From positions 1 through 64,000 of IMG/VR virus record IMGVR_UViG_3300020577_004796: DNA of 64,000 bases; one strand, 5' to 3'. Within the stretch, counting starts at the first letter, position 1. Every line of letters starts with the position of its first letter. Source of the stretch: a virus. Its lineage: Duplodnaviria > Caudoviricetes. The notes under the pieces are model-generated. The model saw only the letters and a list, made by a program, of their open reading frames with translations, had not been told where the DNA came from and made no database searches. Position numbers and translations under genes: made by a program. Of the stretch, positions 7,144 to 61,088 are shown one piece after another.

Positions 7144-7368
7144 TAGTTGGTTTTTAGAGATATTAATTTAAGTTAATCTTATTACTTTGTTCTTTTTCGA
7201 GATGTTCTTGAATTTCATATTCCATCTCTTTTGATTTGTAACCTATGTAGTTTCCTAGAACTAATCCAGTAATAAGTGGTATTATTATATACGCAACTAT
7301 CATACTGGATTAGTTTATCTGTTATTAAAAATATACGATTTTATTTTGATTCTACCAAATAAATCTTA

Positions 7369-30748: not shown

Positions 30749-30780
30749 CAAAGGTACGAAACCTTTATGATTTTACCAAA
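30749..30780 (-). promoter_or_regulatory. Bacteroidota primary-sigma promoter
   Basis: Minus strand TTTG-N20-TACCTTTG. Confidence 0.7.
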
Positions 30781-30790
30781 TTTATTTTTG

Positions 30791-33777: not shown

Positions 33778-33809
33778 TTTGGAATTGTTAATAATAAGTT
33801 GTACCTTTG
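33778..33809 (+). promoter_or_regulatory. Bacteroidota primary-sigma promoter for the GIY-YIG gene
   Basis: TTTG-N20-TACCTTTG ending 5 nt before ATG 33814. Confidence 0.75.
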
Positions 33810-33813
33810 TGGT

Positions 33814-34356
33814 ATGATTTACATATATACAATTACAAGTCCTACGGGAAGGGTTTATGTGGGACAGACCATTAATCCTACAAAGAGAAAACACCTCTAT
33901 AAGTCATTACATTGTAAGACACAATATCTCATTTATAATTCCATATTGAAATATGGCTGGGATGCACATGTGTTTACTGTTATAGCAGAATTACCTATCG
34001 AATATGGAGATGATGCAGAAATAGCATATATTTCCTATTATAGGGCCTATCATACTGATGGTGGACTTAATCTTACTACAGGAGGATTACGCCCTAAAAT
34101 GACTGTAGAAACAAAACAGAAACTATCTGCTGCTATTATGGGAGCAAAGAATGCCAGAGCTAAGAAACTATATCAATATACATTAGATAAACAACTCATT
34201 AAAATATGGGATTGTATGAAATGTATTGAGAGAGAACTTGGTTATGGTACATCTTGGTTATCTATAGCAGCTAAAAATAATAAACAAGCTTACGGCTATC
34301 TATGGTCATATGAACCTCTGCAAGGGCTAGATGAATGGGTAATCTGTTCATGGTAA
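33814..34356 (+). CDS. GIY-YIG homing endonuclease (NUMOD3/NUMOD1)
   Basis: IYIYTITSPTGRVYVGQT, LNLTTGG, TVETKQKLS, LYQYTLD..LIKIW. Confidence 0.85.
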   Translation: MIYIYTITSPTGRVYVGQTINPTKRKHLYKSLHCKTQYLIYNSILKYGWDAHVFTVIAELPIEYGDDAEIAYISYYRAYHTDGGLNLTTGGLRPKMTVETKQKLSAAIMGAKNARAKKLYQYTLDKQLIKIWDCMKCIERELGYGTSWLSIAAKNNKQAYGYLWSYEPLQGLDEWVICSW

Positions 34357-36098: not shown

Positions 36099-36387
36099 AA
36101 AAGCTCATTAAACTAATGCATTCTCTTACTTGTAAAGTATGTGGATGGCATATAAGACATTGTAAATGTCATTAATTTAATTCTTCAGATAGAATACAAT
36201 GAAAATGTTGCGTTATATGATGCAAATTATTAAATACTTGCATTATTCTATCTAAAGAATTAAATGCATACCAAACCTCAGAGGAGTTATATCCCTCACT
36301 GATTAGACAATAACTTAACACGGTAACAATTCTGTAATGTTTAAACTGATTCAAAAGGATTAAAATGTTTCAGTACATGGTTTTACA

Positions 36388-36503
36388 GGACGAGGAGGAT
36401 GTTGGCTTGAAAGCAGCAATCATTTAAAGAGTGGGATGGCAAATATGTTTTTTCTATTTTTATAGAGATAAATACCCTTTGGCGTAACAGCACACTCCAA
36501 GTT
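36388..36503 (+). ncRNA. 23S rRNA GTPase-associated-centre (H42-H44)-like structured RNA, copy 1
   Basis: GGAG-GATGTTGGCTTGAAAGCAGCAATCATTTAAAGAG-[about 48-nt hairpin insert]-TGGCGTAACAGCACA-CTCC. Confidence 0.8.
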
Positions 36504-36537
36504 AAGTTTAATCAGTCTTTCTCCCAAAGAGTGAGGT

Positions 36538-36673
36538 GTTGTAATGAGATAGGCAGGTCCCCAAAGACGGATAATAATGTAAATTAAAGAAACCGTGTTT
36601 ACTACTAGCTAAGTGATTAGAAACGTAGACTAGCAATAGGTCAGCGGTAAAGAGCATGTATCTCTATTACAAC
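36538..36673 (+). ncRNA. Unclassified multibranch structured RNA candidate
   Basis: Closing stem GTTGTAATGAGATA / TATCTCTATTACAAC; internal CTAA-GTGA-TTAG and CTA-GCAA-TAG GNRA hairpins. Confidence 0.5.
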
Positions 36674-36748
36674 AAGGTATATTGGGTGCTGATAGGAAAG
36701 ACTATCCCTCTTCGGAGGTTATTCAATTCACTCATTAAAACAATACTA

Positions 36749-37087
36749 ATGAAAAAGACATACATATTCAGATATGATACAAAGGATGGTAAATTCTTAG
36801 GCTATCATTATGATAGTTTCTGTACTACAGGTAACAGTGTTATAGAAGCTAAAAGATATCCAATGACTACAGAAGTACTTCCAGAACAAATGAAGACCAT
36901 TCGGGAGAATCTGGAATCATTATGTAAGAGATATACTAATAACATGTTCCATGGGCATCCTGTAGCTGATGTCATACTCTCTGAAGAAGAACTGACAGAG
37001 TCCGTAGAACAACAGTACCCACATACCATGAAATGGGCCAGAATAGAACTGGTAGATGGAGAAATACAAACTGTATCAACTCCTTAA
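36749..37087 (+). CDS. Hypothetical protein
   Basis: Likely start ATG 36749 (MKKTYIFRY) after a CACTCA box. Confidence 0.6.
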   Translation: MKKTYIFRYDTKDGKFLGYHYDSFCTTGNSVIEAKRYPMTTEVLPEQMKTIRENLESLCKRYTNNMFHGHPVADVILSEEELTESVEQQYPHTMKWARIELVDGEIQTVSTP

Positions 37088-37114
37088 TTCACTCACTTTA
37101 AAAACACATCAGGT

Positions 37115-37438
37115 ATGAACGCTAAACAAGAATTCCTAGGACATATAGGAACCCGTATAGTAAAATGTGCTATAATACGAATAGGAGATATATATATGGA
37201 TGAAGATGTAATAACTAACCTATTACCTGTAGGAGCATCTAGTACACAGTCAGAAACATTTCTGCAGAGTATAGATAGAAATTACAATAATGGGTATGGT
37301 ACTCAAGAACTATTTGGTACTATATGGTATACTGATGGTACCTGGTCTAGCAGAGGTGAATATGATGGCAGTGAATGGTGGGAACATCATAAATGCCCGG
37401 ATATACCAAAAGAACTACAACAGAAGCAATATCTATAG
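37115..37438 (+). CDS. Conserved small phage protein
   Basis: 107 aa, Y..GYG.QEL.GTIW..DGTW..R.EYDGSEWW motif. Confidence 0.7.
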   Translation: MNAKQEFLGHIGTRIVKCAIIRIGDIYMDEDVITNLLPVGASSTQSETFLQSIDRNYNNGYGTQELFGTIWYTDGTWSSRGEYDGSEWWEHHKCPDIPKELQQKQYL

Positions 37439-37440
37439 GT

Positions 37441-37635
37441 GGTGTGGTAGAGAATGTTGGCTTGAAAGTAGCCATCATCTAAGGAGTAGGTGAGAACCCT
37501 AAGCACAGTGGCAATCTCTGGTAATGGGAGATATGAAGTGGGCATGGGATAAATTCAAAAGTTGGGTGGATTAAACGCCACTACCTGGTAGTCATTATAC
37601 CAGCCTTTTGGTGTAACAACACACTCTGTCACATC
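37441..37635 (+). ncRNA. 23S rRNA GTPase-associated-centre (H42-H44)-like structured RNA, copy 2
   Basis: 12-bp closing helix GGTGTGGTAGAG/CTCTGTCACATC around AATGTTGGCTTGAAAGTAGCCATCATCTAAGGAG-[about 120-nt insert]-TGGTGTAACAACACA. Confidence 0.8.
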
Positions 37636-37670
37636 ATCTATAGATACTTATAGTAAAACAACAATATCCC

Positions 37671-37803
37671 CCTCTGTAGGGGTAGTGGTAGAAAATGATA
37701 TATAGCAGTTAAGTCAAAGATCCGGAAAATGGCCCATGGAGGTACTAGACACACCTGGTCATCTGCAGTATGGATATATCAGCTACCATTACCTCTACAG
37801 AGG
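37671..37803 (+). ncRNA. Long hairpin / multibranch element
   Basis: 21-bp closing helix CCTCTGTAGGGGTAGTGGTAG / CTACCATTACCTCTACAGAGG (with G-U pairs), plus inner TGATATAT/ATATATCA. Confidence 0.6.
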
Positions 37804-38926
37804 ATTAAGTTAACAACAGTACAGATATTAATACCTTTGTATAACAATCACTCACAAATAAAACAACTAACAAATACCTGTAGAGTATGGTGTAGAACTT
37901 AGAAAGAACTAATAAGTGTGGGTAAAATGCTGTGGCTAATAACCATATACATCATCTCTACAGGTAATATAAAACATTAAAATGGGAAAGAATACTGCAA
38001 GGAATAATCCAGGTAAAGTTAATGGTGATATTGGTCAGGGAGTAAAACGTAAGGACAACCCAGAACTATGGCATAAACTACACGGACATGCTGTAAACTA
38101 TAAAGGTAAAAGACACAATAATGCATTAGGCTCACTATACGGGAAACCTGATAGAGAAGAATATTATAAATACGAATCTGAATAAACACTCTGAAGTAAG
38201 CCTTGTTGTAATAGGTATAAGTATTAGGGTCTCTGATGTAATATTCAGGCTTGTCTAACCTTTTAACAACTATTACAACAGGCTTATGGAAGAGTATTAA
38301 ACAATGACTATTTAAAAAATAACTTATGAGATATAGATTTGATACTTGTTATAATAAACAAAAAACCAGCACATGGCTGCATTTTTATATCTTACCTTCT
38401 ATAGGATTTGAAATGCAAAAACCTAAATTAGCAGCGAGATATTGGGAATTTCATTTTGGCTGGTTATTTTGGAATCTTATTATATCGTTTTAAACAATAT
38501 TAATATGGCTACTAAATTTATAACTCTAAATAGAGCAAAAGACCTTGAAGTAAGTATAGGTTGGCTTTCTAATTATCAAAATAAATCTGGAGAAAAACAT
38601 GTAATTGGTAATTCTTTAGAGGATATAGATGCAGAAGCTACTGAAAAACTTAAACAACTTTCAAAGTTAAATAAAGAACGTGAAAGTTTATTAACTTGGT
38701 TCAAACAATATTGATAACACATAAAAGCAAACAACATGAAAAAGTCAACAATAATACTTGGTATAATATCTCTGATACTGTTCATCTGTAGTGCCATCTA
38801 TGACAGTCCCATACTGTTCATGATAGGGTTCGCTACCTGTATAACAGCATGTCTGATACAGGGATGGGATACATGGTCAGCAGGAGATGATGAAGAATAA
38901 GTTCACTCACTAAAAATAAAAACATT

Positions 38927-39235
38927 ATGACACCAATACAACAGAAAATAGAAGAATACCGGGAGTGGCTACAGGAAGAAGTTAGAGTACGGAAAGGAGC
39001 TATTAATATGGGAGCAGCAATGATGGGAATGGGATATGAAGATGCCCTGCAGAAACTAGACACTATGTTCCCCGTGGAACATACATCAGAAGAACCTACA
39101 ATGTCAGACCTCATCATGGATACTGTAGATATACCGGTAGATGATGGACCTATAGAAGAAGAATGGGCTCGTAAAGACATAAAACAGGAACTGGGTATAG
39201 CAGATGAAACTGATAATATCTATCCAAAACACTAA
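38927..39235 (+). CDS. Hypothetical protein
   Basis: 102 aa after a CACTCA box. Confidence 0.6.
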   Translation: MTPIQQKIEEYREWLQEEVRVRKGAINMGAAMMGMGYEDALQKLDTMFPVEHTSEEPTMSDLIMDTVDIPVDDGPIEEEWARKDIKQELGIADETDNIYPKH

Positions 39236-39250
39236 ATCAAAACAACATAT

Positions 39251-40645
39251 ATGGAACAGAACAAAGCAGGACCTAATGGTCTCCCAACAGAGTATCAGAT
39301 ATACATCAGTGATGATAACTCAGAAGAAGGAAAAGAACTAATAAATAATAAAGCTGCTACTAAAGGTCATAGTCATGGAAGACATCGAACATATGGATCT
39401 TCTGGATACTATCATATCAAGGAGAATATGTGGTTCTACTATGGTACCAAGAGAACTGATATAGCAGAGATATCCTATGAAGACTGGAAGAAAGCTCTCA
39501 CTGAACCATCTACAGGTTATAAGGTAGGAGACTGGATCACTATACTGAATGGTGGCTGTAGGGTAGGCCCAGGAATGCAAGGGCATAAACTAGTAGGTAA
39601 TAGTTATCAGATATCATCAGTAGACCGGCAAACTCCTACAGAGTGGAAATACACATTAGAGGGAAATCCTGTCCAAACATCAGCAATAGTATGGGATAAA
39701 GCTACTATGGGTAGTCAACCCTACATCAGGCCGGCAGCACCTGAAGAAATAGCTAAGGCTACCGGTATACCTCTACCAACAGAGAGTAAAGAATGGGTAC
39801 CAAAAGTAGGTGAGTGGGTAGTGACAACCTCTACAGAATACAACTATACTGAGAATGGAGAAACAGGTAAAGTAGGTACAGTATACCAGGTACAGGAGGT
39901 GCTAAAAGATAAAGCTGGAGACTGGTACAGAAGAACTAAAGGGGCTACTGATGGTGCTAAAGTAATATCTCTCAGACCAGCCACTTCAGAAGAAATCAGA
40001 AAAGCTCAATCTAAGAATGGTAAGGAATGGGTATGTACTAGTGAAGATGGGGTGGAGTTGTATGATGGGAATATGGGATATTGGACCGAGTTAAAAGAAG
40101 GTACCTGGAAATGGTGTACTACCTGCCATATAAGTAAAGCACATATAGCAAAAGGTTGTAGTCTAACTACAGGAAACTTCAAAGTATTCTCCACAGAACA
40201 AGCAGCTAAAGAATGGATAAGCCGTCAAAGTACATCAGGGGAATGTAGGGAACCATGGTCACCAATACCGGTAACTGATGGACAAGTAAGAAACACTGCC
40301 AAAATAGGACAGAATGCAACATGTAGAGCAGGAAACTATAAAGGGCAATGGGGTGAAATAGTGAAAATGGATAAAGGGTTCTGGTATGACCTAAAAATGA
40401 AAGATGAAGAAGTAGTAACATGTTATCCATCAGAAATAGAAGAAATAAGAGTAAACAAATCAATAATCAATTCACAAACAAAAACCAAAACAAACAGTTA
40501 TGGGAACATCACGGAGAGCGACGCAGACAGCGTCAGAGCAATTAAATTATCGTCAATTACGCGAACAGTCGGACGATCAACTGAAGGACCAGCAGTTGCA
40601 ATACGACGTAAGAAGCAACCTAAACGGGTTGTCAGAGTATATTAA
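39251..40645 (+). CDS. Multi-module early protein with repeated SH3/KOW-like units
   Basis: Repeated KVG(D/E)W(I/V) modules and RPA(A/T).EEI.KA linkers. Confidence 0.65.
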   Translation: MEQNKAGPNGLPTEYQIYISDDNSEEGKELINNKAATKGHSHGRHRTYGSSGYYHIKENMWFYYGTKRTDIAEISYEDWKKALTEPSTGYKVGDWITILNGGCRVGPGMQGHKLVGNSYQISSVDRQTPTEWKYTLEGNPVQTSAIVWDKATMGSQPYIRPAAPEEIAKATGIPLPTESKEWVPKVGEWVVTTSTEYNYTENGETGKVGTVYQVQEVLKDKAGDWYRRTKGATDGAKVISLRPATSEEIRKAQSKNGKEWVCTSEDGVELYDGNMGYWTELKEGTWKWCTTCHISKAHIAKGCSLTTGNFKVFSTEQAAKEWISRQSTSGECREPWSPIPVTDGQVRNTAKIGQNATCRAGNYKGQWGEIVKMDKGFWYDLKMKDEEVVTCYPSEIEEIRVNKSIINSQTKTKTNSYGNITESDADSVRAIKLSSITRTVGRSTEGPAVAIRRKKQPKRVVRVY

Positions 40646-40835
40646 CAAGACTTCGCGTGAACTCGATGAAGCCAAGAAAAATCTTCAAAACGAATACAGA
40701 CGTGAGAAGATCGACTGGGAAATAGTTGCACAATGTAAGGACGCTATTAGCGATCTGGAAGCCGGCCTTGCGTCTTTGAAAGAAGACCGCCAAATGCTCT
40801 TTCCTGATTGGAAAGAAGTAGCTACTGAAGACTAA
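40500..40835 (+). CDS. Coiled-coil protein overlapping the 3' end of the upstream gene
   Basis: 111 aa, strong codon bias, A-rich leader before ATG 40500. Confidence 0.7.
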   Translation: MGTSRRATQTASEQLNYRQLREQSDDQLKDQQLQYDVRSNLNGLSEYINKTSRELDEAKKNLQNEYRREKIDWEIVAQCKDAISDLEAGLASLKEDRQMLFPDWKEVATED

Positions 40836-40934
40836 TGAAGCTCGGGCCACAGTGCCTCCGAATGTAGCCAAAGGGTAGATATACTCTGCGGCTACATTCA
40901 TCTTTTTAATGTTTAAATCTTTTATAAATAAAAC

Positions 40935-41310
40935 GGGCCCGAAAGGCAATCGACTTGCAATATTAAGAGCAACAGACATGCAGGGAAGGTGTGTTGACCA
41001 CTAATACACGCACAACAACAAATGCTAAAGTTAGCAAAAGCGCTATGACCTTTGGTCGTACTCGCACGATTGATGTTACTTCTTTCGCCCGCCCACGTGG
41101 CCTGGCGTTTGCAGCCTAACACCACTTCTGGTGAGAAGTAAACACACCAAAAACTGTTTTGAAATCTCAGTAAAGGATACCTTGACGTTGGAAGTAGATG
41201 TAAAGTATGCATAACTTCATAGTTTGATAGAACAATAAACTGATCTAAAGCATGTGAAAAGACTGTATTATTAAATTGTAAACACGTTCGTTCGAATCGA
41301 ACCGGGTCCA
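40935..41310 (+). ncRNA. ssrA: tmRNA (one-piece)
   Basis: 5' GGGCCCGAAAGGCAATCGAC; 3' GTTCG-TTCGAAT-CGAAC-CGGGTCC-A; G3-U70 alanine determinant; tag ORF 41024-41119 ends LAFAA*. Confidence 0.93.
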
Positions 41311-41376
41311 CGAATCCACAATAAATTTGGCGAGTCCACTTTTATTAAGAAATTCAGCCAAGTAAGAATGGCGCCA

Positions 41377-41415
41377 GGAGGAGTGCTGAATTAGGCAGTA
41401 TCTCCTCCTTTTTTT
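41377..41415 (+). terminator. Intrinsic terminator downstream of tmRNA
   Basis: AGGAGGAG/CTCCTCCT stem followed by a T run. Confidence 0.6.
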
Positions 41416-41753
41416 AACTCACTTAAAACTTATTTTATGTCACTCATTCTAAAATTACTTTTAAGCATTTGTATATTAATACTTCCGTGCTGCTTTAAAT
41501 TACCTGTACAACAAATAGTAAATTTAGAACTATGTTCTTTATTTATTAATATTTGTTTGTTTATAGTAGTTCCTACAAAAAGGAAACCTAAATCACGTAT
41601 GTATATTCATTATTTATATTTTACTGACGGAGATATAATACGTATAGAAAGTAAAGATTCGCGTCCAATAACAGCTTATCTTTCAAGTTCTAAATACTTT
41701 CCACATAAAGAAGTTTACGATACATATACTTTATAATCTTTAAAATTAATTTT

Positions 41754-41993
41754 ATGTGGTTATACACGCACGGGGAAGATGGTTTTGAAATAGGACCATT
41801 TGATGCTTTTACTAGAGCTGCTGCTATAAAAGCTGTACATTTAGCGATAAAGGAAGAGTTTGAGCCTGAATCAAAATCGTACGTTAAAATGCTTATCCAG
41901 GAGTTTAGGGAGAATCCTACATATCTACGGAAACTAAGTAAAGAACAACAAGAAAATATCAAACGAAACTATAATTTTTTGAGAGGTATGTAA
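41754..41993 (+). CDS. Hypothetical protein
   Basis: 79 aa ORF. Confidence 0.55.
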   Translation: MWLYTHGEDGFEIGPFDAFTRAAAIKAVHLAIKEEFEPESKSYVKMLIQEFRENPTYLRKLSKEQQENIKRNYNFLRGM

Positions 41994-42570
41994 ATGATGC
42001 TTATATGCAGACAGGATGAGTTAGACGTCTAGCTAATGTCAACAATATTTTCCGCTTTAAAGGTATAACCGTAATTATGGCACCTCTCATTTTTATTCAC
42101 TCACAAACTCACTGTTATGTATACTTCAAAAGTTAATTATTTAAAAACACTACCCATAGGGGATTTCATTATCTTTTGTTTATTATGTTTTCTTTCTTAC
42201 ATATGTGTAATACTATATTTAATCTTGTTTCATGAAGATATTTTTGGCAAGCTATTTGTAAATATAAAAAACTGGCTCAAAAAACCAATTTGGTAACTTA
42301 AACTTATTCATATGTTTGTACTCGAAGGATCTCCGTTGCTTCTTAATCTAATTATTTACAATACTTATAAAATTAGATTTGGATCAAAAATTAATTATGA
42401 GCTTTATTATGAGCTTATGAATCAAATAATAACTTAACCAGGTATGTGAGTGGATGCTATCAACCTAGGCCGTTTAAAGGGTACAGAGACAACTAGCAAA
42501 TAAATAATCGACCACCACATACCTGGATAAGAACTCAAAACATTTAACTCACTCAAAAAATCATTTTGAT

Positions 42571-42825
42571 ATGTACAACAATTATTTAATATACATAATG
42601 GGGTTCATAGTTGCTTTTCTAATAACAAGGTCTATTGCAAAAGTAATAGTGAAAGACATGGAAGGATCTGCTGCAAATCCAGGATGGGGGGCACTAACAG
42701 CTAGAGTTCTCCTTTCTTTTGGTAGTTGGATTACTGTTTTTAGTAGTTTGATAATGATAATAGTTTATTTAATTTATAAATTTATCGAAAATAAAAAAAT
42801 AGGTGATCCACCTAGCTGGCTATAA
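42571..42825 (+). CDS. Small two-TM membrane protein
   Basis: Two hydrophobic segments. Confidence 0.6.
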   Translation: MYNNYLIYIMGFIVAFLITRSIAKVIVKDMEGSAANPGWGALTARVLLSFGSWITVFSSLIMIIVYLIYKFIENKKIGDPPSWL

Positions 42826-44277
42826 CTAATTTTTAACCATTTCAAATTATTTCATATGATACGCTCAATATCAATAATCGCACTTACGTTGGTAATAATA
42901 ATATTTATCATAGGAGTTGGTGCGTTTATAAGTTCAAGACCAGATCCCCCAAGAAAGCCAAATATTGTCACTAACAAATACTTTACTTCACGTAACAATT
43001 ATCCATTAATTTGCCAATACGAAGCAACAAATATTTATGGTTACACTGAAGATTCGTGTGATAAGTACGATGTAGGTGACACATTAAAAACTTTTAAATA
43101 AAAAACATGCCTAAAACAAAAAATTGGTTACAAGAACACATCGGAAAGAATATTCAGATAATTAAATCTGATGAATCAGATATTATTACTGTCTTAGACG
43201 AAGAACACGTAGAGATCTTGTTTAACCAACAAGATACTTATGTATATGAGGAGATCGGTCCCATCAATGTAACAATCGTAGAAGATGCTTCAGAAATAAT
43301 ACAAGAAGAATCTTTTGCGGATCAATGGTTAGACAATCAAGCTAATAAGTATTAATGCACCTTATACGTTATTGGTTCAAAAAAACTGAATTTGAACGAA
43401 TGATAAACGATTGCCATCGCTATGATTTGTTTCACAGACGCAGAATTTATACATTTTGGGGTAAAAGAAAAACATATTAAAGTATAGTAGGGGGTCCAGG
43501 AACATGTAAGAGTGTACAATGTATGCCTTTGTATCGTAAACCCTCTACTACATATTTTATCACTCACTCAAATCAAACATATGATACTCATAGCAATAAT
43601 AGAAATGCCTGAAGAACACCAAAATCTTTCAAGAACTGTTATGGTATTTGGTGAAATCGAGTTACAAGCGCAAGAAGAAACAGTGGATGCTGAAGTAGAA
43701 GTAATCTCTTCGTGTCCATTACAATAAACTTTATCAAAATCTATATGGGTTGTGAGGAATCCCATTTTATATAAAAACTCTCTCTAACGAAAAAACCAAG
43801 ATATACGTTAGATTGTTTGCAGCACTTGGGCGCCTCTTGCGTGAGATCTTTAACGTGAAGAGAAGATGCGTTGCGCGAAAAGCTATATGCATTATGCGAT
43901 TCGTTTATAGAAGAGCTGGTCCAGAAAGATGGTTTGGGTTAACCCCCGAATCCTGGACCAGTTTTTTATTACTTACTCATTAAATATTATTTATTAACCA
44001 TAAAAAACAACTCAAATGAAACACTTGCTGTCACGCACACATTTGCCCAGAATTAAAGCTTTCACTTTCACACATAAAGGAAGTGACCCAGAAGTATTGG
44101 ATATTGTTGTTTATGCAAGTAATGCACAAGCTGCAGCTCATAAACTAAAAGTTCCTGCCGGAAGAAAAAAAGAAGATTACAAATTAAAGCCCGATGAAAC
44201 TGTCAAAGAAGAAAAAGAGAAAACTGTTCAAACTCTTAGTTAATCAACTCATTTTTAACAAATATTAAATTGATTTT

Positions 44278-44757
44278 ATGAAATTAAATGTAAATTCTTG
44301 GTATGGTAGGCTTTATTTGTCTACTTATGGTAAAGACAACACAGATACTTTACCAAATAATATATGTTCATTCTTTTGGCCATTACTCTTTGCCATAATA
44401 CTGTTTCCTTTATGTTGGCCGGGCCACGTAATAAATCTATTCACACCTAAAACTATGAATAGAACAAACGCTTTACAAACTGCTTTCCATTTACCAGCTT
44501 CTTTGTTTTTTGGAATACTTATAGCTTTGACAATGAATATCAAACAAATGGATTTGATGCGACTTTATTTGTATGGATTTATGGCGTTCGTATTTTTTTT
44601 CTTTTTTATTTTTGCTTTAGCTTTTGCTTGTTTTTATATTTCAGATAAAATAAAAGAAAGGCGCCCACTCACCCCTAAGAAAGTTAATCCGATTGTAGCC
44701 GGGTTTAGAGCCATTAAAGGTAAATATTGCACCCCCGTTACCTGGGAAAGAAAATAA
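44278..44757 (+). CDS. Membrane protein
   Basis: Three hydrophobic segments; NNICSFFWPL motif. Confidence 0.65.
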   Translation: MKLNVNSWYGRLYLSTYGKDNTDTLPNNICSFFWPLLFAIILFPLCWPGHVINLFTPKTMNRTNALQTAFHLPASLFFGILIALTMNIKQMDLMRLYLYGFMAFVFFFFFIFALAFACFYISDKIKERRPLTPKKVNPIVAGFRAIKGKYCTPVTWERK

Positions 44758-46467
44758 TTAACTCACATTAAACTTAAAAGCGTATGAAACTCCTTTGCGT
44801 TTTATTAATAACATTACCTTACTTATATTTTGCTTTCCAAGCCATAAGAAGGTTGGTGATACCTAAAAAGACTAATTTAACAGCTAAGCAATATTCTGAA
44901 GAAGTTGCTTTTCAAGCAGCTGTGGAAACAGTATGTGGTGCAGCCTGTTTTTTGGGATTCATACTGCTTTTTCTGTTTATTTAACTTATCCAGGATGACG
45001 GGGAGATTCCAACAACGCTTTGATTGTACATAAAGAGGCGGAGGGCTCCCCATCTAACTGGTATTACTCACACTCAACTGTTAGGTTATGCTCACAAACA
45101 CACTCGAAACACTCATTCAATCAAAAAATCCAACTAATGGTTCAAAACTTTGGTATATTCTTGAATTTAACAATCAATTAGCTGGTAAAATAACACCAGA
45201 AGTTAAAATCCAAGGGGATTGTTTTATACCATTAGGCTCTTATGTATGTGGAAAATGCATCCTTAAAGATGTAACAATTCCTTATAATACCGGAATAATA
45301 AGTCTTTCTGTACATAAAGAGCATGACAAAGTCGGTAAAATAGGTGATTTTGAATTGGTCAAAGACTTCAGAATCGCACGAGGAGTTTATGTTTCTGGAT
45401 TAATTCGTAAATCAGATCACGAATATATGAACGCTCGTATTATTTTAGGGTATGATTTATGTGTGTATAACAGAAATCATACTTCTAAACAAACCTACAA
45501 AAAAATACAGAAACAAAAACTTTGAGCCTGTAACCTATAAACTCTATCACTCTTTAAATTTGCAAGTATGAATGAAACTATAAAGAAATTAGAAAATGAT
45601 TTTGAGGTACAGTCTTTAGAAATCCTTGAACAAAAAGAAAGCATACTTGCTGATTCTTATTGGCAAAATCTAGCTTGGTTTAAAGAAATATGCAGATCAA
45701 AATCATTTAAAAGATTAAAGCAAGCTAAGGCTGTCGAGAAAATAAGAAATGAATGGATCGAAGTACAACAACAAATTATTTTACTCAAAAAACAAACTCA
45801 ATGAAAAGAAATCCATTACCGTTTATTATCATATACATGCTACTTTTAGCAGTATTTTTTGTTATGTCAGCAAAGTCATGTCCGGGCCAAAGCTTTGGAT
45901 TTAACACTGACACCTATCGTAAAGTATGTGTATCAGAGGAGCCAATTCCTTTATTTAACGTATTTGTAAACGATTCTTTGTGTGTTGAAGCCATAGAATT
46001 AACCACTGATAATTTGAAAGAATTATCTAATATGGAAAAACATTACCTAGTTACTACAGACGGAATAGCTGTTTGTCTTTACAGAAATAGATATTGTATA
46101 TTTCTGCCTGATACAAAAACTAAGTATGTTGTAACTTCCTTTCAAAATAAACCTGTTAATTATCATCTTGTGTGGTTTATCCAGGAGATAAGGAAGTGGC
46201 GCGCTCTAAATAATTCCATCACTTCAAATTAAATAAAATGAAAAAGCATTATTTAGCGACATCTGTGTTTACTACACAGCAAAAAGTTCTAAGGGGGGAA
46301 GATCTGGAAGAAATTATAGATTTACCTAAACCATGTAAAGAATTTAAATCCGTAGCAGCGCTTCAATTAATGAATTTTCATTTTGTATCTACTGAAGAAA
46401 TTCTTAATCCCTGGGCAAGAACTATTGCTGATCAGCATTTTCGTAACATTCATCTAAACTAAAACTC

Positions 46468-46851
46468 ATGCATAAAAAACTTTTAATACTTTTTGGAGTA
46501 TTGTTATTATTTTCTTCTTGTGAAGAAGCAAGTAAATTTAAAGTAACAATATATGCAAACAAGCACGGTACTTTTTGCGAATACTTAGTTGATTCTGCAA
46601 AAATGGTTGGGAACCGTTATGTGTTTAAATATAAAGATAGACATTGTAACTATCCTCAGCAAACAGAAGAAACTACTAATTGGGTTACACCCGCATCTGG
46701 TACAAATACACATGTTGAAGTTAGACCACCATTGGAAGAACAACTAACTAAACAAACAGAAGAACGTAAGAAAATACTTAGTTTTCTTATGGCGTTAGGC
46801 TGTGGAGTGACTCTTATTTTTATTTCACGTTCTTTAAAAAAAATTTTATAA
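46468..46851 (+). CDS. Putative lipoprotein with C-terminal TM segment
   Basis: MHKKLLILFGVLLLFSS-C lipobox-type signal. Confidence 0.6.
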   Translation: MHKKLLILFGVLLLFSSCEEASKFKVTIYANKHGTFCEYLVDSAKMVGNRYVFKYKDRHCNYPQQTEETTNWVTPASGTNTHVEVRPPLEEQLTKQTEERKKILSFLMALGCGVTLIFISRSLKKIL

Positions 46852-47043
46852 TGCTACAGTCAATAATTTTCTTTTTTGCATTATTAAGTAGTTTCACGGG
46901 TATTTTTGGCATAGCATTAATATCAAACGATAAAAAAGATAAACGCCTTGTATTGTTAGGTGTAATATCTCTTTTAACCTGCTGGTTATTATAGAGTTAT
47001 TTTTATCATATTTCTTAACAATTCACTAAACCAACAAAAAAAA

Positions 47044-47931
47044 ATGAAACAAAAAACGATTCAATTAGACAAAGAGCTTGAAATGATAGCTCAAAATGAC
47101 GAAAAAGCGTTTGAACCTTTGCAAGAAGTAAAACTTCTTTTGGCCGGAGATCATCAACAAGATGTTAACTTGATGCGGAGCCTTGCTGGTAATTCTAAAC
47201 TTATCCAGCAGGAGAAGATTGTTGGTGCCCAGTTAGAACTCGAAAGGTTCAACAGCCAATATGGTAAAACTTTTACTATAGATCAAATCAAAGCTTTGGC
47301 TGTAAAATATCACCTGCGCTTTTTGCATTCTACTAAATTTAAGGGAGACATGGATATCCAGGTTATCTCTAAAGTAAAAGAGTTTGCAAAAGAATACGAA
47401 GTCTCCTGCCTGGACGAGCATAGCCTCGGAACAAAATTCTTTATTATGGCACCGGCCGAATCTTTTCATATGACAACACGTTCTTTGAAAAGTGTTCGTG
47501 CCCAGGAAAAAGAAGAAGCTCGTAGGAAGCTTATGCTGGAGCGTGATCCTATTCTTTTCTATAAGATAGATCAAAAGCATTATCGCATGATCCACAAATG
47601 GGGCCGTGATCTCACAGCATCGAGAGCCACTATGGGCTGGTATTGGAAGAACTTCAAGAATTACTCTAAAGCAAACAGAATTGCGGTAGGTATTCTGTTT
47701 GTTCTTTCTGCTATTCTGATGAATGTCAAGTTATCAACATTGTCAGAAACAGAAACATTCCAGAAGTATTTCAATAGCGGATTGGTTTTCAGTTTCGCTA
47801 ATCTATTACTATTGTTAGTAATGGGCCTTGTTTTGGCTTTCCGTTTAGGTCGCGTTCAAAAAGAAGGTGAGCCTCGTGAAGCTTTATTTGGCGAAACCAA
47901 TTGGGATCAGTCTGAATTAATTTTGATGTAA
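47044..47931 (+). CDS. Conserved phage protein with C-terminal TM helices; paralog of 53860..54714
   Basis: KY.L....F.GD, F.I.APA, D..L.Y...Y..I.KWG motifs shared between the two. Confidence 0.65.
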   Translation: MKQKTIQLDKELEMIAQNDEKAFEPLQEVKLLLAGDHQQDVNLMRSLAGNSKLIQQEKIVGAQLELERFNSQYGKTFTIDQIKALAVKYHLRFLHSTKFKGDMDIQVISKVKEFAKEYEVSCLDEHSLGTKFFIMAPAESFHMTTRSLKSVRAQEKEEARRKLMLERDPILFYKIDQKHYRMIHKWGRDLTASRATMGWYWKNFKNYSKANRIAVGILFVLSAILMNVKLSTLSETETFQKYFNSGLVFSFANLLLLLVMGLVLAFRLGRVQKEGEPREALFGETNWDQSELILM

Positions 47932-49155
47932 AAACCGGAACTATAAGTTTTCCTGACAGGAAATGAAAATGTGCTTTCAGTTTAGTGTCAGCAGACTGGG
48001 AGGAGTGATAGATTAAGGTTGAGGGGAGAGACCCGAGATTCTTGATTTCACGATGCATCTAGCGCATTGAAATAAGGCTAACGAATCCAAGCCTTAAAGT
48101 GGATTTAGCTGTGGTATAGGTAATCTTTTTGTAGTTGTGGTTCAATTCCCACTATAATTAGATTGCCTTTACTACAGTTTATTTAAAAAATTATGAAAAA
48201 CGAAGAAAGATTTTTTACAGTGTATCTTTCTAATGATACACAAAGATCAATAAAAGCCAAAAGTCCTGATATTGCTTATATAAGAGTTCTCAGTTTTATC
48301 TTAACCAGAGAGATGGATAATGAAATTCTCTATATTGTAGATGAAAAAGATAAAAAGATTTACTACGATTTAGAGTGGGCTGTTATTATGAACGACGGAG
48401 ATAGCTTAGAAAGAATAAGTGGTAACCCACCAACATACACTGAAAAAGAAGTACTTGAAGCAATTTTAAGTTATTGTAGATATATAGGCAACGTACCTGC
48501 TTCTGCAGAACATTATTTTAACACACAAGTAAAAAAGAAATAAAAATGGGCGATAAGAAAAATTCTCCGTTACGCAACCAAAGAAGAAAGAATGTGGTAG
48601 AAAGACTATCACAACAATTAAAAGATAATGTAAAGTTGGTAAAGCAAGCTGGTACCGACTCCCTTATCCTGGAAGAGCCCTTATCAGAAAATGATAAAAA
48701 AAGAATTCTAACAGAATTATCTACCTTAGAAAGTAGAATAACATATTAAGATCTCATAAAAGGAGAAGTAGCCAGTTATCGTAAGACTGGTGTCTCTGGA
48801 GGGGTTGTGCGATGGTAACGGGTTGGCCGTAAGTAAGAAGGTGAAACAGACGACTTTGTCTCATCGAGGGGACATATACAGCACTTTTAGGGTACGAAGC
48901 GTTATACATCACTGAAAATTGGTCCATACAATTTATAGGAGGAGGGAACTACTTTCTAATCAGTAGTGGTTGAAGTCCACTGTACCCGCTAATAAAAATA
49001 CTGCAATATTGCAATCGTAGCTTAAATTTTCCAAGAGCATGGATACGAGCATAAGAGGACCCACTAACACATAGTCTCGCGACTATAAAGATTATATAGA
49101 AACCAACTATTACAAATCTTAGTAAGAATTTGTAGGGGAATAGTTGGTTTCTTCT

Positions 49156-49761
49156 TCACTTGTTTTTATTTTTACCTCTATAATTACAAGTTTGAGCATG
49201 GCAATTAGGACATAAGATTTCAAGATTTTCTAATGTATGATTAAAACAATTTCCATCTATATGATTTAATTCAATAGGTATTTTTACATTATTCCACATT
49301 TCTAGATTACATTTTTCACATTTATGTTCTTTTACTTTTTCTTTAATTAATCTATTTTTAAGTTTAAATGTGTGATATTGTGGATATTTACCATTTAATA
49401 TATCTTTTAGAGGATAAACTTGCTTGATGTTGGGTTTCTTACTTCCTTTTGATCCCTGATTAGGTTTGTATATGTTAAACTTAATCGCATATTTTTTAAA
49501 AGTATTAAAGTGAAGATTTGTTTTAGAACAAGCTTCACGCATAGTGTTAGAAGCCTCAATTGCATTTTTAATAATCGTTTCGATATTTAATTTATCTGTT
49601 GTAGTCATATATATAATATACGAACAATAATCGAGACTGCCAAATCTACATGTATATGAAACACACTCCAGAAGAATACAAAAAGAAAAAAGAATACGAA
49701 GCTCTTTATAAGAAAATAGGAAAAGATAGAGCTCGTGTTCGTAAAAATAAACGTTGTACAA
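49156..49761 (-). CDS. HNH endonuclease (lone minus-strand gene in the plus-strand block)
   Basis: CEKC..., LNHIDGN..N...NL..LCPNCH; true start likely ATG near 49606. Confidence 0.85.
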   Translation of the reverse strand: MYNVYFYEHELYLFLFSYKELRILFSFCILLECVSYTCRFGSLDYCSYIIYMTTTDKLNIETIIKNAIEASNTMREACSKTNLHFNTFKKYAIKFNIYKPNQGSKGSKKPNIKQVYPLKDILNGKYPQYHTFKLKNRLIKEKVKEHKCEKCNLEMWNNVKIPIELNHIDGNCFNHTLENLEILCPNCHAQTCNYRGKNKNK

Positions 49762-49851
49762 AACGCAGAGATAATTGGAAAAGTAAATATAGCGGAATTT
49801 GTCCTAGATGCGGTAGAAGTAAGTATGGAGATGATTGCTGGTAAATAATTC

Positions 49852-49908
49852 AACGAGGTAGTTCAGTGGTAGAATTTGTGTCGGCGTGTTCGATTCCGCC
49901 CCTCGTTA
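49852..49908 (+). ncRNA. 57-nt tRNA-like RNA lacking the anticodon arm
   Basis: AACGAGG/CCTCGTT acceptor, GTTC-AGTGGTA-GAAT D arm, 7-nt linker, GGCG(T)G-TTCGATT-CCGCC T arm, discriminator A. Confidence 0.75.
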
Positions 49909-50327
49909 CTCACTAATACCATAATATGTTTGTATGGAACAAAATAAGAAGTTTATTGACAGTTAGGAATACTGTCTTTTCCAGAAAAAGGTTATGTGAT
50001 ATATGTCATCAGAATGACGGCCACCACCTGTTACTGGACAAGAAAAGCTTAGCATGTCACATTTGCTGGAATAAATGCAACAAGAACAAGTATAGTTACT
50101 ACGGAAAAAAATGAAATGGAAACCACACAACCTAAAGCAAAGAGATACACAGCAGAAACAAACGAATTACCTTTACAACTTGTCTATGATTTTAAAAAAA
50201 CACCATACGATAAGTTTCTGTTGAATAGAATGAAACGAGATCAGAAAGAAAAAACTTTTCATGGATTTAATCGTGACACTCTTTTGCGAAAACTAAAGGA
50301 GTCTCCAAGATTGTCAAAGTTATTAAA

Positions 50328-50789
50328 ATGATATTTGACACAGATCAAGCCCTCACTAATTATTATCAAAACGCTATAAGTGATTTAGTAAAATCAAATG
50401 CGATCATAAACGATGATCAACATGGTAATAATTTATGGGCTTCTAATACTTATGGCAACACATTCTCATTTAATATAAAATGTGCAGAATCTAAAAATAT
50501 ACAAATAGCAGGCTTTTCTCTTGAAAAAATGCCCAGCTGTGATCGTATTTTACTTTCCACCCATTCCTGGGTAAGTAGAAAATATCAAAAAATAGGTTTA
50601 GGCACACTTTTAAATCAAATGCGAATAGATATAGCCAAAAGATTAGGATACAAAATATTAATGTGTACTAATAGAGAAGATAATATAGCACAACGCAGAA
50701 TTCTCTCAAAAAATGGTTGGAAAGATATTTATACCATGCCTGGAGATAAACTCACAGATAATGTATATTTATCAGTAATCGATTTATAA
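50328..50789 (+). CDS. GNAT-family acetyltransferase-like protein
   Basis: V..KYQKIGLGTLL acetyl-CoA binding motif A; N..Q.RIL.KNGW. Confidence 0.7.
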   Translation: MIFDTDQALTNYYQNAISDLVKSNAIINDDQHGNNLWASNTYGNTFSFNIKCAESKNIQIAGFSLEKMPSCDRILLSTHSWVSRKYQKIGLGTLLNQMRIDIAKRLGYKILMCTNREDNIAQRRILSKNGWKDIYTMPGDKLTDNVYLSVIDL

Positions 50790-50907
50790 GTCTATCATAA
50801 TATCCAAAAGATAGCTTACTTTCATCAGTAGAAATACCAAAGTGAAATACAACGTGGGACGTTCTATTTTGTGGGTACTTATTTAAATAAGTATGATGAA
50901 AGGACAT

Positions 50908-50979
50908 GGTGGCATGATGTAATGGACAGCATGAATCTCTTCTAAAGATTTCGTTCCAGTTCGAACCTGGATGCTACTA
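50908..50979 (+). tRNA. trnR: tRNA-Arg (TCT)
   Basis: GGTGGCA/TGCTACT acceptor, AATCT-CTTCTAA-AGATT anticodon arm, TCCAG-TTCGAAC-CTGGA T arm. Confidence 0.92.
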
Positions 50980-51321
50980 CAAAAATAAATTTGGTAAATT
51001 AATATAATAAGAAGTGTGTGGTAGTAAAATCGAACGCTAGAAAGAGGATAGCATTTACATATGTATCCAGATAGATACATCCGTAGCTGAGAATCTCCAC
51101 TATTCCTTATTATATTTATATTTTTTCACTTATCAAAACTCACGTTATGACAAAACAAAAAGTAATCGAGTTCCTTGAAAGACAAGGAGCCAGATGCCGT
51201 TATTCAGGCAAAGAAAAAACATTGTACATACAGCGCCCATCTTCCTGGACAAGTAATTCAGAGATAGTAATAGGGCAGAAGTATGGTATTCTTCCAGACT
51301 TTCAACTAAAGGAGGTAGAAA

Positions 51322-55703: not shown

Positions 55704-56267
55704 ATGGAGCCTCGAATATTTAATAGATTCAAGCAGTATCAAACAAATTATGAAAACGTTCACGAACAATTAAGAGAAATAATGAATACACAATCAATAG
55801 CACCCGTTCGTGTAAATCGCGATGGGTCTCCAGATAAGAGATTTAAGGCAAATAAAACCCCTAATCCTGGAACAGCTAATACACAAGAAGTACAAAAAGA
55901 AGCTCCTGAATGGACTTATGCATTAAATGCAAACGGATATACTTTTCAAAATAAAAGTAAAGCAATAATACATACTACTGCGTTATCTATTTCTGGCGCC
56001 TCTATTTCTTGTGGAGTTAGGCAATTAAGTAATGTTAGTAGCTTATCCAGAGCAGTGGCTATAGGTGTGCCAAGGCCACTTGTTATGCAAGCTTTATCTG
56101 AATTCATTGTCAAATGTAAAAAAGATAATAAATCAGCATATTTAATAGTTTCTAATAATGATAGAGCTAAAGAATCAAATGACATGATTAAAGAAATTGC
56201 CGTAACAAAAACAGAATACAGACGCAATCCAAATAGCGGAAATCCTGTATTTGTAGCTGTACTTTAA
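55704..56267 (+). CDS. Hypothetical protein, tandem paralog 2 (possibly degenerate GNAT-like)
   Basis: SCG, AYLIVSNN, YRRNPNSGN. Confidence 0.6.
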   Translation: MEPRIFNRFKQYQTNYENVHEQLREIMNTQSIAPVRVNRDGSPDKRFKANKTPNPGTANTQEVQKEAPEWTYALNANGYTFQNKSKAIIHTTALSISGASISCGVRQLSNVSSLSRAVAIGVPRPLVMQALSEFIVKCKKDNKSAYLIVSNNDRAKESNDMIKEIAVTKTEYRRNPNSGNPVFVAVL

Positions 56268-58202: not shown

Positions 58203-61088
58203 ATGACGGATAAATTACAATTATATGATTGGGAGTGTGTCTTGGGATACGCTTGTGTTACTTTTTTATCTTATAAAACAGGTAAACATAAAGTATTTGA
58301 GATAGATGATGATGTAGGAATATCTCAGAGAGATGCGTTAGTGGATTTTATCCAGGGAAAAATGTTGGTTGGTTACAATAGCTTAACCTTCGATAATCTC
58401 TTAACTAACTATTGTATTAAACATAAGAATGTTAGAGCTGCTGATCTTTACGAATTAACTAGTAGAATTATCAACGGCCAAAAGAATAATCCTGATTTCA
58501 ATCTATACAAAGAATTTAGTAATTATCTAAACTCCGCAGATTATGAATCTATAGATTTAATGAGACTCTTATTTTCAAAGAAATTAAGAGTTTCTTTGAA
58601 AGAATTAGAATGTTCTTTAAATTATGTTTCAGTACAGGAGTTTTTGCATCCATTTAATATAACTTTAGATAAACATCAAAAAGAAGAACTTAAAGAGTAT
58701 AACTTAGTAGACTGTAAAGCTACAAAGCTAGTCTTAGATCGTTCTATGGAAAGTTTAAGATTACGTAGATGGGTTCAAGAAGAGTATGGAATAGATACTT
58801 TTTCTATGGATGGTGTAACTTTAGGTGCAAAGATATTAGAAACTGAATATTATAAAGCTACTGGAGATACAAAATTTACTAAATTAAGAACGGTTCGAGA
58901 TTTTATCAAAATTAAAGATGTTATATTACCATTTATAAAATTTGAAACTGAACCATTTAAAGAAGTTTTAAACGTTTATAAATCTCATACGTGGTATTCT
59001 AAAGATTTTGATGAAGAACTTTTTAAAGATAATAGTCTTTTATATGAGCCTTTAATAAAAGGATTTAAATTTAAGTTTAGTTTAGGTGGCGCCCATGGCT
59101 ACACTCAACCTAATGTATGGGAAAGTAATAGTGAATATGACATCATAAGTGTCGACGTAAATTAAACCTCTGCGTCGTAACCTTGTTAATTGCTGGAAAA
59201 CTAATTAAATAGTAGATGAGTAAAATAGATGAGTAGTGTAGGCTGTTATCATTTGGTATAAAGGCACCTCGAATCTACTATTTATATGTCAATCAGCAGC
59301 CGAGCCTCGTAAGAGGAAGGTTCAGAGACTATCGAAAACACGTAATAATATACGGAAGTGAGTAGAGTAGGAGGAAACTCCGAAACACAAGGCAATTCAA
59401 AATAAATTTGGTAAATTGGATAATATGTTGTATATTTTAAGGATAATACCTTAAATATGCAATATAACAGAAAAAGAGATTTAGGGAAATGCGGAATTTA
59501 TCTTATAAGAAATAAGATAAACAATAAAATATATATAGGAAAAGCAAAATGTATAGATCGTAGAATAAAACAGCATATTACACTGCTTAATCGAAAATCT
59601 AAAGACGAAAACCCACATTTAATTAATGCTTGGCATAAATATGGAAAAGATGCTTTTGAATATATAGTTTTAGAATATCTTGATTTTAATGAAGAACAAA
59701 TAAAAGAGCGAGAATGTTTTTGGATAACTCATTTAAACGCACTAGATCCGAAAGTAGGATATAATCTTAGATTAGATTCTTCCACAGGAATGATAACTTC
59801 TGAAGAAACAAAATTAAAATTAAGAGAATCCAGAAATAAACGATCTATTAAATTTCCTGAATTAAATAAAAAAGTAGGGGAAATAACTAGAGAGTTTTGG
59901 AAAAATAACCCAGAAGCGAGAGAACAGATGAGTAAAAATGTTAAATTAGCAAAGCAAAAAAAGTATAGATATTTGCAATATGACAAAGAAATGAATCTTA
60001 TTCAAATTTGGGATACCGTTGAAGAAATCCTAAAAATAAATCCGAATTACAAATGGCAAAATATATATGCAGCATCGAATGGTAATAAACCAACAATGTA
60101 TGGTTATATATGGCGTAAAGAATTGAAGATATAGTCCGACACTCTTAGAAATAAGAGATTACAGACCCGAGAGGGTTTCTATCCTAGTCAAATGATTGAA
60201 TATCTATTTTTTCCTGAACATTTAAATAAAGAAGTATTACGAGATATATTTATAAAGATAGGAGAGCGAAGAAACGTAGCTAAGAAGGCTGGAGATATGG
60301 TTGTAAGTGATACTCTAAAGTTAGCTAGAAATGGCCCTTATGGGCTTTTAGGCTCACAATACAGCTGGTTATTTGATCATAAAGCTAGGTTATCTATTTG
60401 TGCTAATGGTCAGCTAATGTTAGCGATGTTAGTAGAAAAATTCTTCCAAAATAATATAAAACTCCTAGATATAAATACAGATGGTACTTACATTTATTTG
60501 CATAAATCTCAAAGAAATAAATTTCAAGAAATCATAAAGTGGTGGGAAGATTTAACAAAGATGAAGATGGAGCAAACTAAATTTGAAAAGATTTGGTTTT
60601 TAAATACAGCTGATTACTTTGGAACTTACTACAAAAAAGATAAACTTGAAACAAAATGTAAAGGTATATTCTTAGAAAAAGTTGAACTAGGAAAAGGAAT
60701 GGAATTTCCTATAATAGCTGAAGCGGTTAAGAATTATTTTTTAAATAATGTTTCTATTGAAGATACTATTTATGGATGTAAAGATATACTTAAATTTTGT
60801 GCTTACAGAAAATTAAAAAAAGGAACACAGTGTTTTCATAACTTAAAAGAACAACAAAGAGTAAATAGATTTTTTGCATGTCTAGGAGGGGCATATTTAT
60901 ATTCAAGATCTAAAGACGAAAAAACAGGAAAAATAAGAATAACTAATATGTTAAAGAGTAGTGGGGTTGAATTACTCAATTTTGTGGATAATAAAAAAAT
61001 AGAAGAAAGGAGAATTAATTTTGGTTTTTATCTTTCAAGTGCGCGTAAAATAATGCATACTATTGAAGGAGATCCAAAGCTCTTCTAG
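58203..61088 (+). CDS. polB: Family B DNA polymerase, two exons (58203-59158 and 60170-61088), about 624 aa spliced
   Basis: Exonuclease YDWE and GYNSLTFD; motif A rebuilt by splicing as SVDVEGFYPS; motif B KLARNGPYG; motif C NTDG. Confidence 0.9.
59407..59438 (+). promoter_or_regulatory. Intron-internal promoter for the homing endonuclease
   Basis: TTTG-N20-TATATTTT variant of the Bacteroidota consensus, upstream of ATG 59457. Confidence 0.55.
59457..60134 (+). CDS. Intron-encoded GIY-YIG homing endonuclease (C-terminal NUMOD1)
   Basis: CGIYLIRNKINNKIYIGKA, GYNL, QYD.EMNLIQIW; its stop codon lies within intron element S. Confidence 0.9.
   Translation: MQYNRKRDLGKCGIYLIRNKINNKIYIGKAKCIDRRIKQHITLLNRKSKDENPHLINAWHKYGKDAFEYIVLEYLDFNEEQIKERECFWITHLNALDPKVGYNLRLDSSTGMITSEETKLKLRESRNKRSIKFPELNKKVGEITREFWKNNPEAREQMSKNVKLAKQKKYRYLQYDKEMNLIQIWDTVEEILKINPNYKWQNIYAASNGNKPTMYGYIWRKELKI

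Follow-up and report, generated by a model that had tools for sequence, protein, structure and literature searches.

A tRNA-like gene lacking the anticodon arm in a variable tRNA slot of AT-rich phage DNA

The plant mitochondrial t-elements and mascRNA, located at the 3′ end of MALAT1, are tRNA-like, experimentally processed and conserved. The stable RNAs C and D of phage T4 (species 1 and 2), YrlA and the tRNA-like domain of tmRNA also derive from tRNA or mimic it and perform no anticodon decoding. What RNase P, RNase Z and the CCA-adding enzyme recognise in a tRNA is the elbow and the acceptor/T helix rather than the anticodon arm, and mimicry of tRNA by long non-coding RNAs for RNase P has been mentioned (PMC4810234). 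In phage T4, the homing endonuclease SegB is encoded in the tRNA cluster, recognises the T-loop motif GGTTCRANTCC within tRNA genes and causes related phages to have their tRNA region replaced (PMC2330249). Homing endonuclease genes often mark exchange boundaries in phages (PMC10448857). Our literature search turned up no report of phage tRNA genes without an anticodon.

The DNA analysed here, called the window below, is a 64,000-nt stretch (GC ~33%) of an IMG/VR record of 73 kb that is ~61% complete. The genes for the large terminase, portal and major head protein share one of its strands, and the early genes occupy the opposite one. At 49852-49908 on the plus strand lies an anticodon-armless tRNA-like gene of 57 nt with no encoded CCA. 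On balance we lean towards seeing this element as a relic: a tRNA gene damaged by a deletion, in a tRNA slot that varies and has a homing endonuclease gene at its side.

Compared with a canonical tRNA (RF00005), the element is alike in its acceptor stem, its D arm with G18 and G19, its UUCGAUU T loop, the sequence GUGUC and the discriminator A; it differs in the absent anticodon stem-loop, an extra U in the T stem and the inability to decode, and ARAGORN makes no call at 49852-49908. It resembles phage tRNA pseudogenes in its clear tRNA descent with the decoding part lost, and the defective state is unconserved at its slot, which holds an intact tRNA-Gln in the related phage G001. With the T4 and T5 tRNA regions that contain free-standing homing endonucleases (SegB; PMC2330249) the window shares an endonuclease among tRNA genes, a tRNA content that varies between close relatives and exchange boundaries at tRNA genes. 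It differs from them in that the endonuclease is of the HNH type and lies on the opposite strand, the adjacent tRNA is truncated, and the homing role is here read from the genes alone. Like the t-elements and mascRNA, the element is a non-decoding tRNA-shaped module and a candidate recruiter of RNase P, RNase Z and CCA addition, but it is not conserved and is known from sequence alone. It is far smaller than T4 RNA C or D, and, in comparison with YrlA (RF02553), it has neither an Rfam match nor a Ro-binding stem, its acceptor end being open. Nor is it a fragment of a tmRNA: the pair C3-G70 in place of G3:U70, from which the initial annotation had drawn this conclusion, is indeed there, the 57 nt are contiguous, a mRNA-like domain is absent, and Rfam gives no tmRNA match.

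Structure and detection of the element

The acceptor stem (5′ strand 49852-49858, AACGAGG; 3′ strand 49901-49907, CCTCGTT) consists of 7/7 Watson-Crick pairs, with the discriminator A at 49908. U8 and A9 (TA, 49859-49860) are followed by a canonical D arm (49861-49875, GTTC AGTGGTA GAAT) with the loop AGUGGUA and four pairs, one of them G-U. The linker TTGTGTC (49876-49882) leads to the T arm, which is made up of the 5′ strand (49883-49888, GGCG(T)G), the loop (49889-49895, TTCGATT), closed by the pair G53-C61, and the 3′ strand (49896-49900, CCGCC). The conserved bases U8, A14, G18, G19, A21, U54, U55, C56, A58 and C48 are all kept, as is G53-C61. By both the sequence and the Rfam full-model alignment, the acceptor stem, D arm and T loop are intact, as had been noticed at the outset. 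The length of the D-to-T link, 7 nt, is likewise as first described, about that left by the removal of a 17-nt anticodon arm. Its last five nucleotides (GUGUC) resemble a normal variable loop, so that essentially just the 17-nt anticodon stem-loop is absent, that is, the anticodon stem (5 bp) and the 7-nt loop that presents the anticodon. The element is the top half of a tRNA whose anticodon is lost and for which decoding is impossible, in agreement with the initial annotation.

One feature had been overlooked. For the T stem to have its five pairs, the U at 49887 must bulge out. A T stem of this form is rare: among 94 phage tRNAs of normal length found with a control pattern of the same D and T loops, one has it. 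The bulge is the sole lesion beyond the loss of the arm, every stem pair of this single allele being intact. The full tRNAs closest to the element carry CAT or Thr anticodons, in a biased sample that does not decide the parent isotype.

When the isolated element is presented to Rfam, RF00005 matches with 32.3 bits against a gathering score of 29 (E 1.1e-5). The match covers the full model, with just 3 nt in place of the 18 positions of the anticodon arm and one extra nucleotide in the T stem, and no family besides tRNA appears at E up to 10. Rfam passes over long stretches do not report the element, owing to speed filters, and the same passes also overlooked the genuine tRNA-Arg or tRNA-Met. 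Over the whole window, at gathering and E-value thresholds, tRNA-Trp alone was reported, whereas tRNA-Arg, tRNA-Met and the armless element were missed; in a local scan tRNA-Arg reaches 51.7 bits. Standard tRNA finders and filtered Rfam scans thus overlook such genes, and small RNA genes in AT-rich phage DNA require local rescans.

A covariance model built from armless examples (R1) gives the element 60.6 bits, the sole such match within the window. A strict top-half scanner found 0 armless-like matches in 7.1 Mb of shuffled phage sequence, so the element is not a product of chance. The same covariance model also gives a weak match of 16.4 bits (E 0.011) to a 50-nt hairpin at 7263-7312 (plus strand), just 3′ of the major head gene. 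This hairpin has a D-arm-like AGTGGTA and is probably a terminator-like stem.

The absence of the arm might be ascribed to an assembly or sequencing artefact. This was addressed at the level of contigs, by comparing those of four public runs (X1, X2, X3 and X4) over 49300-50500; no RNA run was found to contain the locus. The contig of X1, the run from which the window probably derives, is identical to the window here. X2 (freshwater) spans 49716-49984 and X3 (wastewater) spans 49660-50092, and neither of these Logan contigs has an indel or a substitution inside the element. X2 and X3 stem from a different study than X1. An identical, indel-free junction in three assemblies from two studies makes an artefact very unlikely, and we practically discount it: the deletion is genuine DNA.

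Occupants of the slot in related phages

The complete genome G001 (126 kb), reached via a 295-aa neighbour gene, has an early region collinear with the window. It contains homologues of the genes at 45753, 47044, 48193, ORF62 (49926-50114), 51147 and 51322 onward, with the order kept. ORF62, on the plus strand, encodes a small four-cysteine (zinc-ribbon-like) protein and starts 17 nt after the armless element. It is 42% identical to its G001 homologue, with the cysteine pattern kept, and a protein search with ORF62 returned no candidates. In G001 the ORF62 homologue is preceded, at a distance of 25 nt, by a full tRNA-Gln(TTG) (15434-15504), which thus occupies the same slot as the armless element. 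The two sequences are unrelated, so that the occupants were replaced rather than simply diverged. A tRNA-Arg(TCT) is found somewhat downstream of the ORF62 homologue in G001, as in the window, where this intact gene (50908-50980, plus strand) is ~1 kb 3′ of the element and 167 nt from the next ORF.

The relative represented by X4 shows 21 differences over 49908-50192 (~93% identity), and its homology to the window breaks precisely at the discriminator base (49908). Directly before the break, 30 bases (...ATGAG TTCAACT CTCGT TTCGGGC) show a T arm and an acceptor 3′ strand that both differ from those of the window element. By these alignments, the slot upstream of ORF62 is variable, with three different occupants in three related phages (that of the window, G001 and X4), and the armless state is not conserved at the locus. 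The initial annotation had considered jointly that relatives might carry a full tRNA here and that the deletion might be an assembly error. The former turned out to be the case, and the latter did not.

The annotation had also pointed to related phages as a place where the same deletion could recur. However, no homologue of the element was found in 28 related phage records (G001, G002 and 26 linked by the large terminase at 53-61% identity), nor in IMG/VR or JGI contigs by pattern scans. Pattern scans for the X4-type tRNA 3′ end and for a conserved ORF62 stretch gave no matches in IMG/VR or JGI metagenome contigs, and the bulged T-arm pattern gave just three chance matches in JGI contigs, in GC-rich coding DNA.

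The left flank of the slot in the window, consisting of ORF64, the HNH endonuclease gene and ~400 nt of non-coding DNA, is not common to G001. ORF64 (49650-49844, plus strand) encodes a small Lys/Arg-rich protein (64 aa) that bears a CPRC motif at the C terminus; the ORF stops 7 nt before the element and is absent from G001. The ~400 nt at 48750-49155, between a small plus-strand gene and the 3′ end of the HNH gene, contain no convincing ORF. They are partly GC-richer and include a long hairpin at 49098-49152; the stretch has no Rfam family match and folds no better than shuffled sequence.

The slot conserves a tRNA shape upstream of ORF62 and not an identity (Gln in G001, another type in X4, armless here). 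This would be compatible with a top half kept as RNA-processing punctuation, in which cleavage by RNase P and at the 3′ end of the tRNA shape would separate the messages on either side and set a short ORF62 leader, the anticodon being dispensable. Each of the four early-region tRNAs of G001 is separated by 7-25 nt from the ORF start that follows; the armless element has 17 nt between its end and ORF62, and 7 nt between the ORF64 stop and its own start. Elbow and acceptor/T helix are what the processing enzymes recognise, and tRNA mimicry serves other RNAs in end maturation (PMC4810234). On the other hand, tight spacing is equally given by genome compaction, many relatives have no tRNA-like element at equivalent places, and the tRNA-Arg of the window is separated by 167 nt from its next ORF. 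We regard punctuation, whose support comes from position, as the main functional alternative for this element, though a rather unlikely one.

Neighbouring genes and homing endonucleases

The HNH homing endonuclease gene (49156-49608, minus strand) starts 244 nt from the element and belongs to PHROG HNH families (E 2.7e-26). Its closest relatives at the DNA level are in T5-like Salmonella phages and in jumbo Yersinia, Erwinia and Salmonella phages. That of phage Kenya-K16 is flanked by tRNA-Ala and tRNA-Leu, and that of phage fHe-Yen9-04 is 31 nt from tRNA-Leu, which places this HNH family beside tRNA genes. The window has two further free-standing genes of the homing-endonuclease type, one with a NUMOD3 motif (33799-34356, plus strand) and one of the GIY-YIG type (59457-60134, plus strand), the latter being 66% identical to its G001 counterpart. 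The three genes together point to a mosaic early region. The variable slot, the homology break at the tRNA end and the tRNA-associated endonuclease fit a locus churned by homing and repair, in which a truncated tRNA gene is an expected by-product.

A related possibility is that the lesion matters at the level of DNA. The deletion and/or the T-stem insertion would then be a scar or immunity allele that makes the phage's own copy uncleavable by the HNH enzyme, whose target would be a tRNA gene in this slot, with the RNA shape irrelevant. The proximity of the HNH gene is in line with this, as is the location of its family next to tRNA genes in other phages. Given that SegB recognises GGTTCRANTCC, one may speculate about the SegB-type motif GGTTCGATTCC, which the inserted T at 49887 turns into TGTTCGATTCC here. 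A locus in another phage with the same bulged T stem (L011, see below) has a NUMOD4-like endonuclease ORF ~270 nt upstream. Yet the association is based on two cases, and L003 contains the same element as L011 without the endonuclease. An immunity allele therefore seems improbable to us.

The window also encodes a GNAT protein (50328-50789) that has generic weak GNAT matches only, and a connection of it with aminoacyl-tRNA chemistry was dropped for this reason. Besides the query itself, a search with this protein recovered a single distant relative, in GC-rich phage contigs that have no tRNA close by, and no related loci were found via GNAT.

The initial annotation preferred a decoy for factors or toxins that bind the tRNA end or elbow. 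More broadly, the element could be a dedicated non-decoding tRNA mimic, acting as a decoy or inhibitor of acceptor-end or elbow factors, such as toxins modifying the CCA end, or as a non-ribosomal amino-acid carrier, and immune to anticodon nucleases. The intact elbow and acceptor helix would suit such a role, and the armless class recurs in other phages. Nevertheless, we found no positive support for the decoy. The armless state is not conserved at the locus, and no tRNA-directed enzyme, toxin or tRNA-repair gene was detected near the element, the adjoining GNAT being generic. As far as can be read from its sequence, the acceptor stem has no known anticodon-independent identity set (no G3:U70, G-1 or long variable arm). 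A stoichiometric decoy would presumably have to compete with the entire host tRNA pool, and an RNA without the anticodon arm would not be bound by anticodon nucleases and so could not be a decoy for them. We consider a dedicated mimic to be a poor candidate.

Armless look-alikes in other phages and the origin of the element

A pattern with fixed D and T loops and only a short gap between them revealed 11 further IMG/VR loci with reduced or missing anticodon arms, several of which score 37-56 bits with the Rfam tRNA model. In eleven elements of this kind 97% of stem positions are paired, with many double changes, although these may predate the deletions. The slot between terL and portal in ~40-kb phages (L138-L217) was compared over 80 loci, 47 of which have no tRNA-like element there. 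The others hold a full 72-nt tRNA-Lys(TTT) (17 loci) or tRNA-Ile(TAT) (2 loci), an armless version of 58 nt (8 loci) or 59 nt (1 locus), a degenerate-arm version of 67 nt (2 loci) or an expanded version of 88 nt with a non-canonical arm (3 loci). Examples are L145 2434-2505, L162 2422-2479, L168 2385-2472, L188 2302-2368 and L173 2422-2479. The top half is intact in every variant, from full to armless, degenerate and expanded, which could reflect selection on it and would be favourable to the punctuation role. In two of the 58-nt copies, however, the G19-C56 elbow pair is broken by C56A; this points to decay, and it would weaken the elbow recognition on which punctuation relies. The copies within each type come from nearly identical strains and are uninformative on selection.

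Homologous 68-nt tRNA look-alikes, in which a tiny palindromic hairpin replaces the anticodon arm, are present at L003 10038-10105 and L011 6478-6545. They differ by three substitutions, every one of which (3/3) is in the linker; that the stems are unchanged is a weak sign of constraint. The bulged-U T stem is common to the window element and to this unrelated armless pair. A second armless look-alike from the terminase clade of the window (G007:C1:103670-103731, minus strand, the same as L332) is 62 nt long and belongs to a 120-kb phage. It has a perfect T arm, a weak D arm and a 1:72 mismatch, its gene context differs from that of the window element, and a tRNA-Arg(TCT) is found 1.37 kb downstream of it. 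The locus L315 2947-3006 (minus strand) is grouped with it. The evidence from the look-alikes is mixed, with hints of both constraint and decay.

Phages may keep anticodon-less tRNA top halves as working RNAs, either as RNase P/RNase Z punctuation of early operons or as mimics directed at host factors of the acceptor end or elbow, and the present element may be among them; its arm would then have been lost since only the upper half matters. We hold this general proposal to be doubtful, though deserving of consideration.

The reading as a deletion relic supposes an internal deletion that removed the anticodon hairpin from a tRNA gene in a slot with replaceable occupants and a flanking endonuclease gene, leaving an RNA that cannot decode. 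If the element is transcribed with the flanking early genes, RNase P, 3′ processing and the CCA-adding enzyme should, by their substrate rules, still act on it. Since these enzymes read the top half and not the anticodon arm, its excision is probable in that case, and the RNA would be cut from the early transcript like the intact tRNAs of the same slot in relatives. That the element derives from a tRNA, has lost decoding, bears a genuine deletion and sits in a variable slot follows from the sequences; that it is transcribed and processed in this way and is not under selection we infer. The rare T-stem bulge, the turnover of the slot, the lack of homologues and the C56A decay in an analogous slot support a relic, and we have seen no evidence of a dedicated new function. 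The deletion pseudogene that the initial annotation had offered as the alternative thus becomes the better-supported reading, leaving aside how recent the deletion is.

Several observations do not sit easily with a relic. All stem pairs (16/16) and every base of tertiary contact are intact, and the connector, with its variable-loop-like GUGUC, is neater than one would expect of a neutral relic, barring a recent deletion. Other phages repeatedly have armless look-alikes whose stems differ yet are intact, and in the L003/L011 pair the substitutions are confined to the linker and the bulged-U T stem is found again. Moreover, phage genomes generally purge useless DNA.

If the element is a relic only, it documents the turnover of phage tRNA slots, with three occupants at one intergenic position in near relatives. 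A top half kept for a reason would represent a cheap general phage device for transcript processing or for engaging host factors that bind tRNA. The element is of moderate interest alone and of greater interest as an instance of a recurrent phage pattern.

Some minor features of the window may be added. The exact motif AATAAATTTGG occurs at 30776-30786 (minus strand), 41320-41330 and 50984-50994 (both plus strand), and also at 56266 and 59401 (plus strand). It contains TAAATTTG, a Bacteroidota-type -7 promoter box, and these promoter-like boxes may point to a host among the Bacteroidota. Of the five exact copies in the window, three follow the tRNA-Trp, the ARAGORN tmRNA and the tRNA-Arg within ~10 nt, and the motif is absent at the armless element. 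The candidate tmRNA called by ARAGORN (40935-41311, plus strand; tag AQQQMLKLAKAL*) has a good T arm at its 3′ end and ends in ...GGGTCCA; Rfam over 36300-41400, which includes this stretch, gave no match at E up to 1. Another motif, WMCTCAY (mostly AACTCAC or TACTCAC), is not enriched in the whole window (55 matches vs. ~65 expected), but 12 plus-strand copies are clustered at 41416-51143, and one copy, which starts at 49907, overlaps the armless element by its final two bases.
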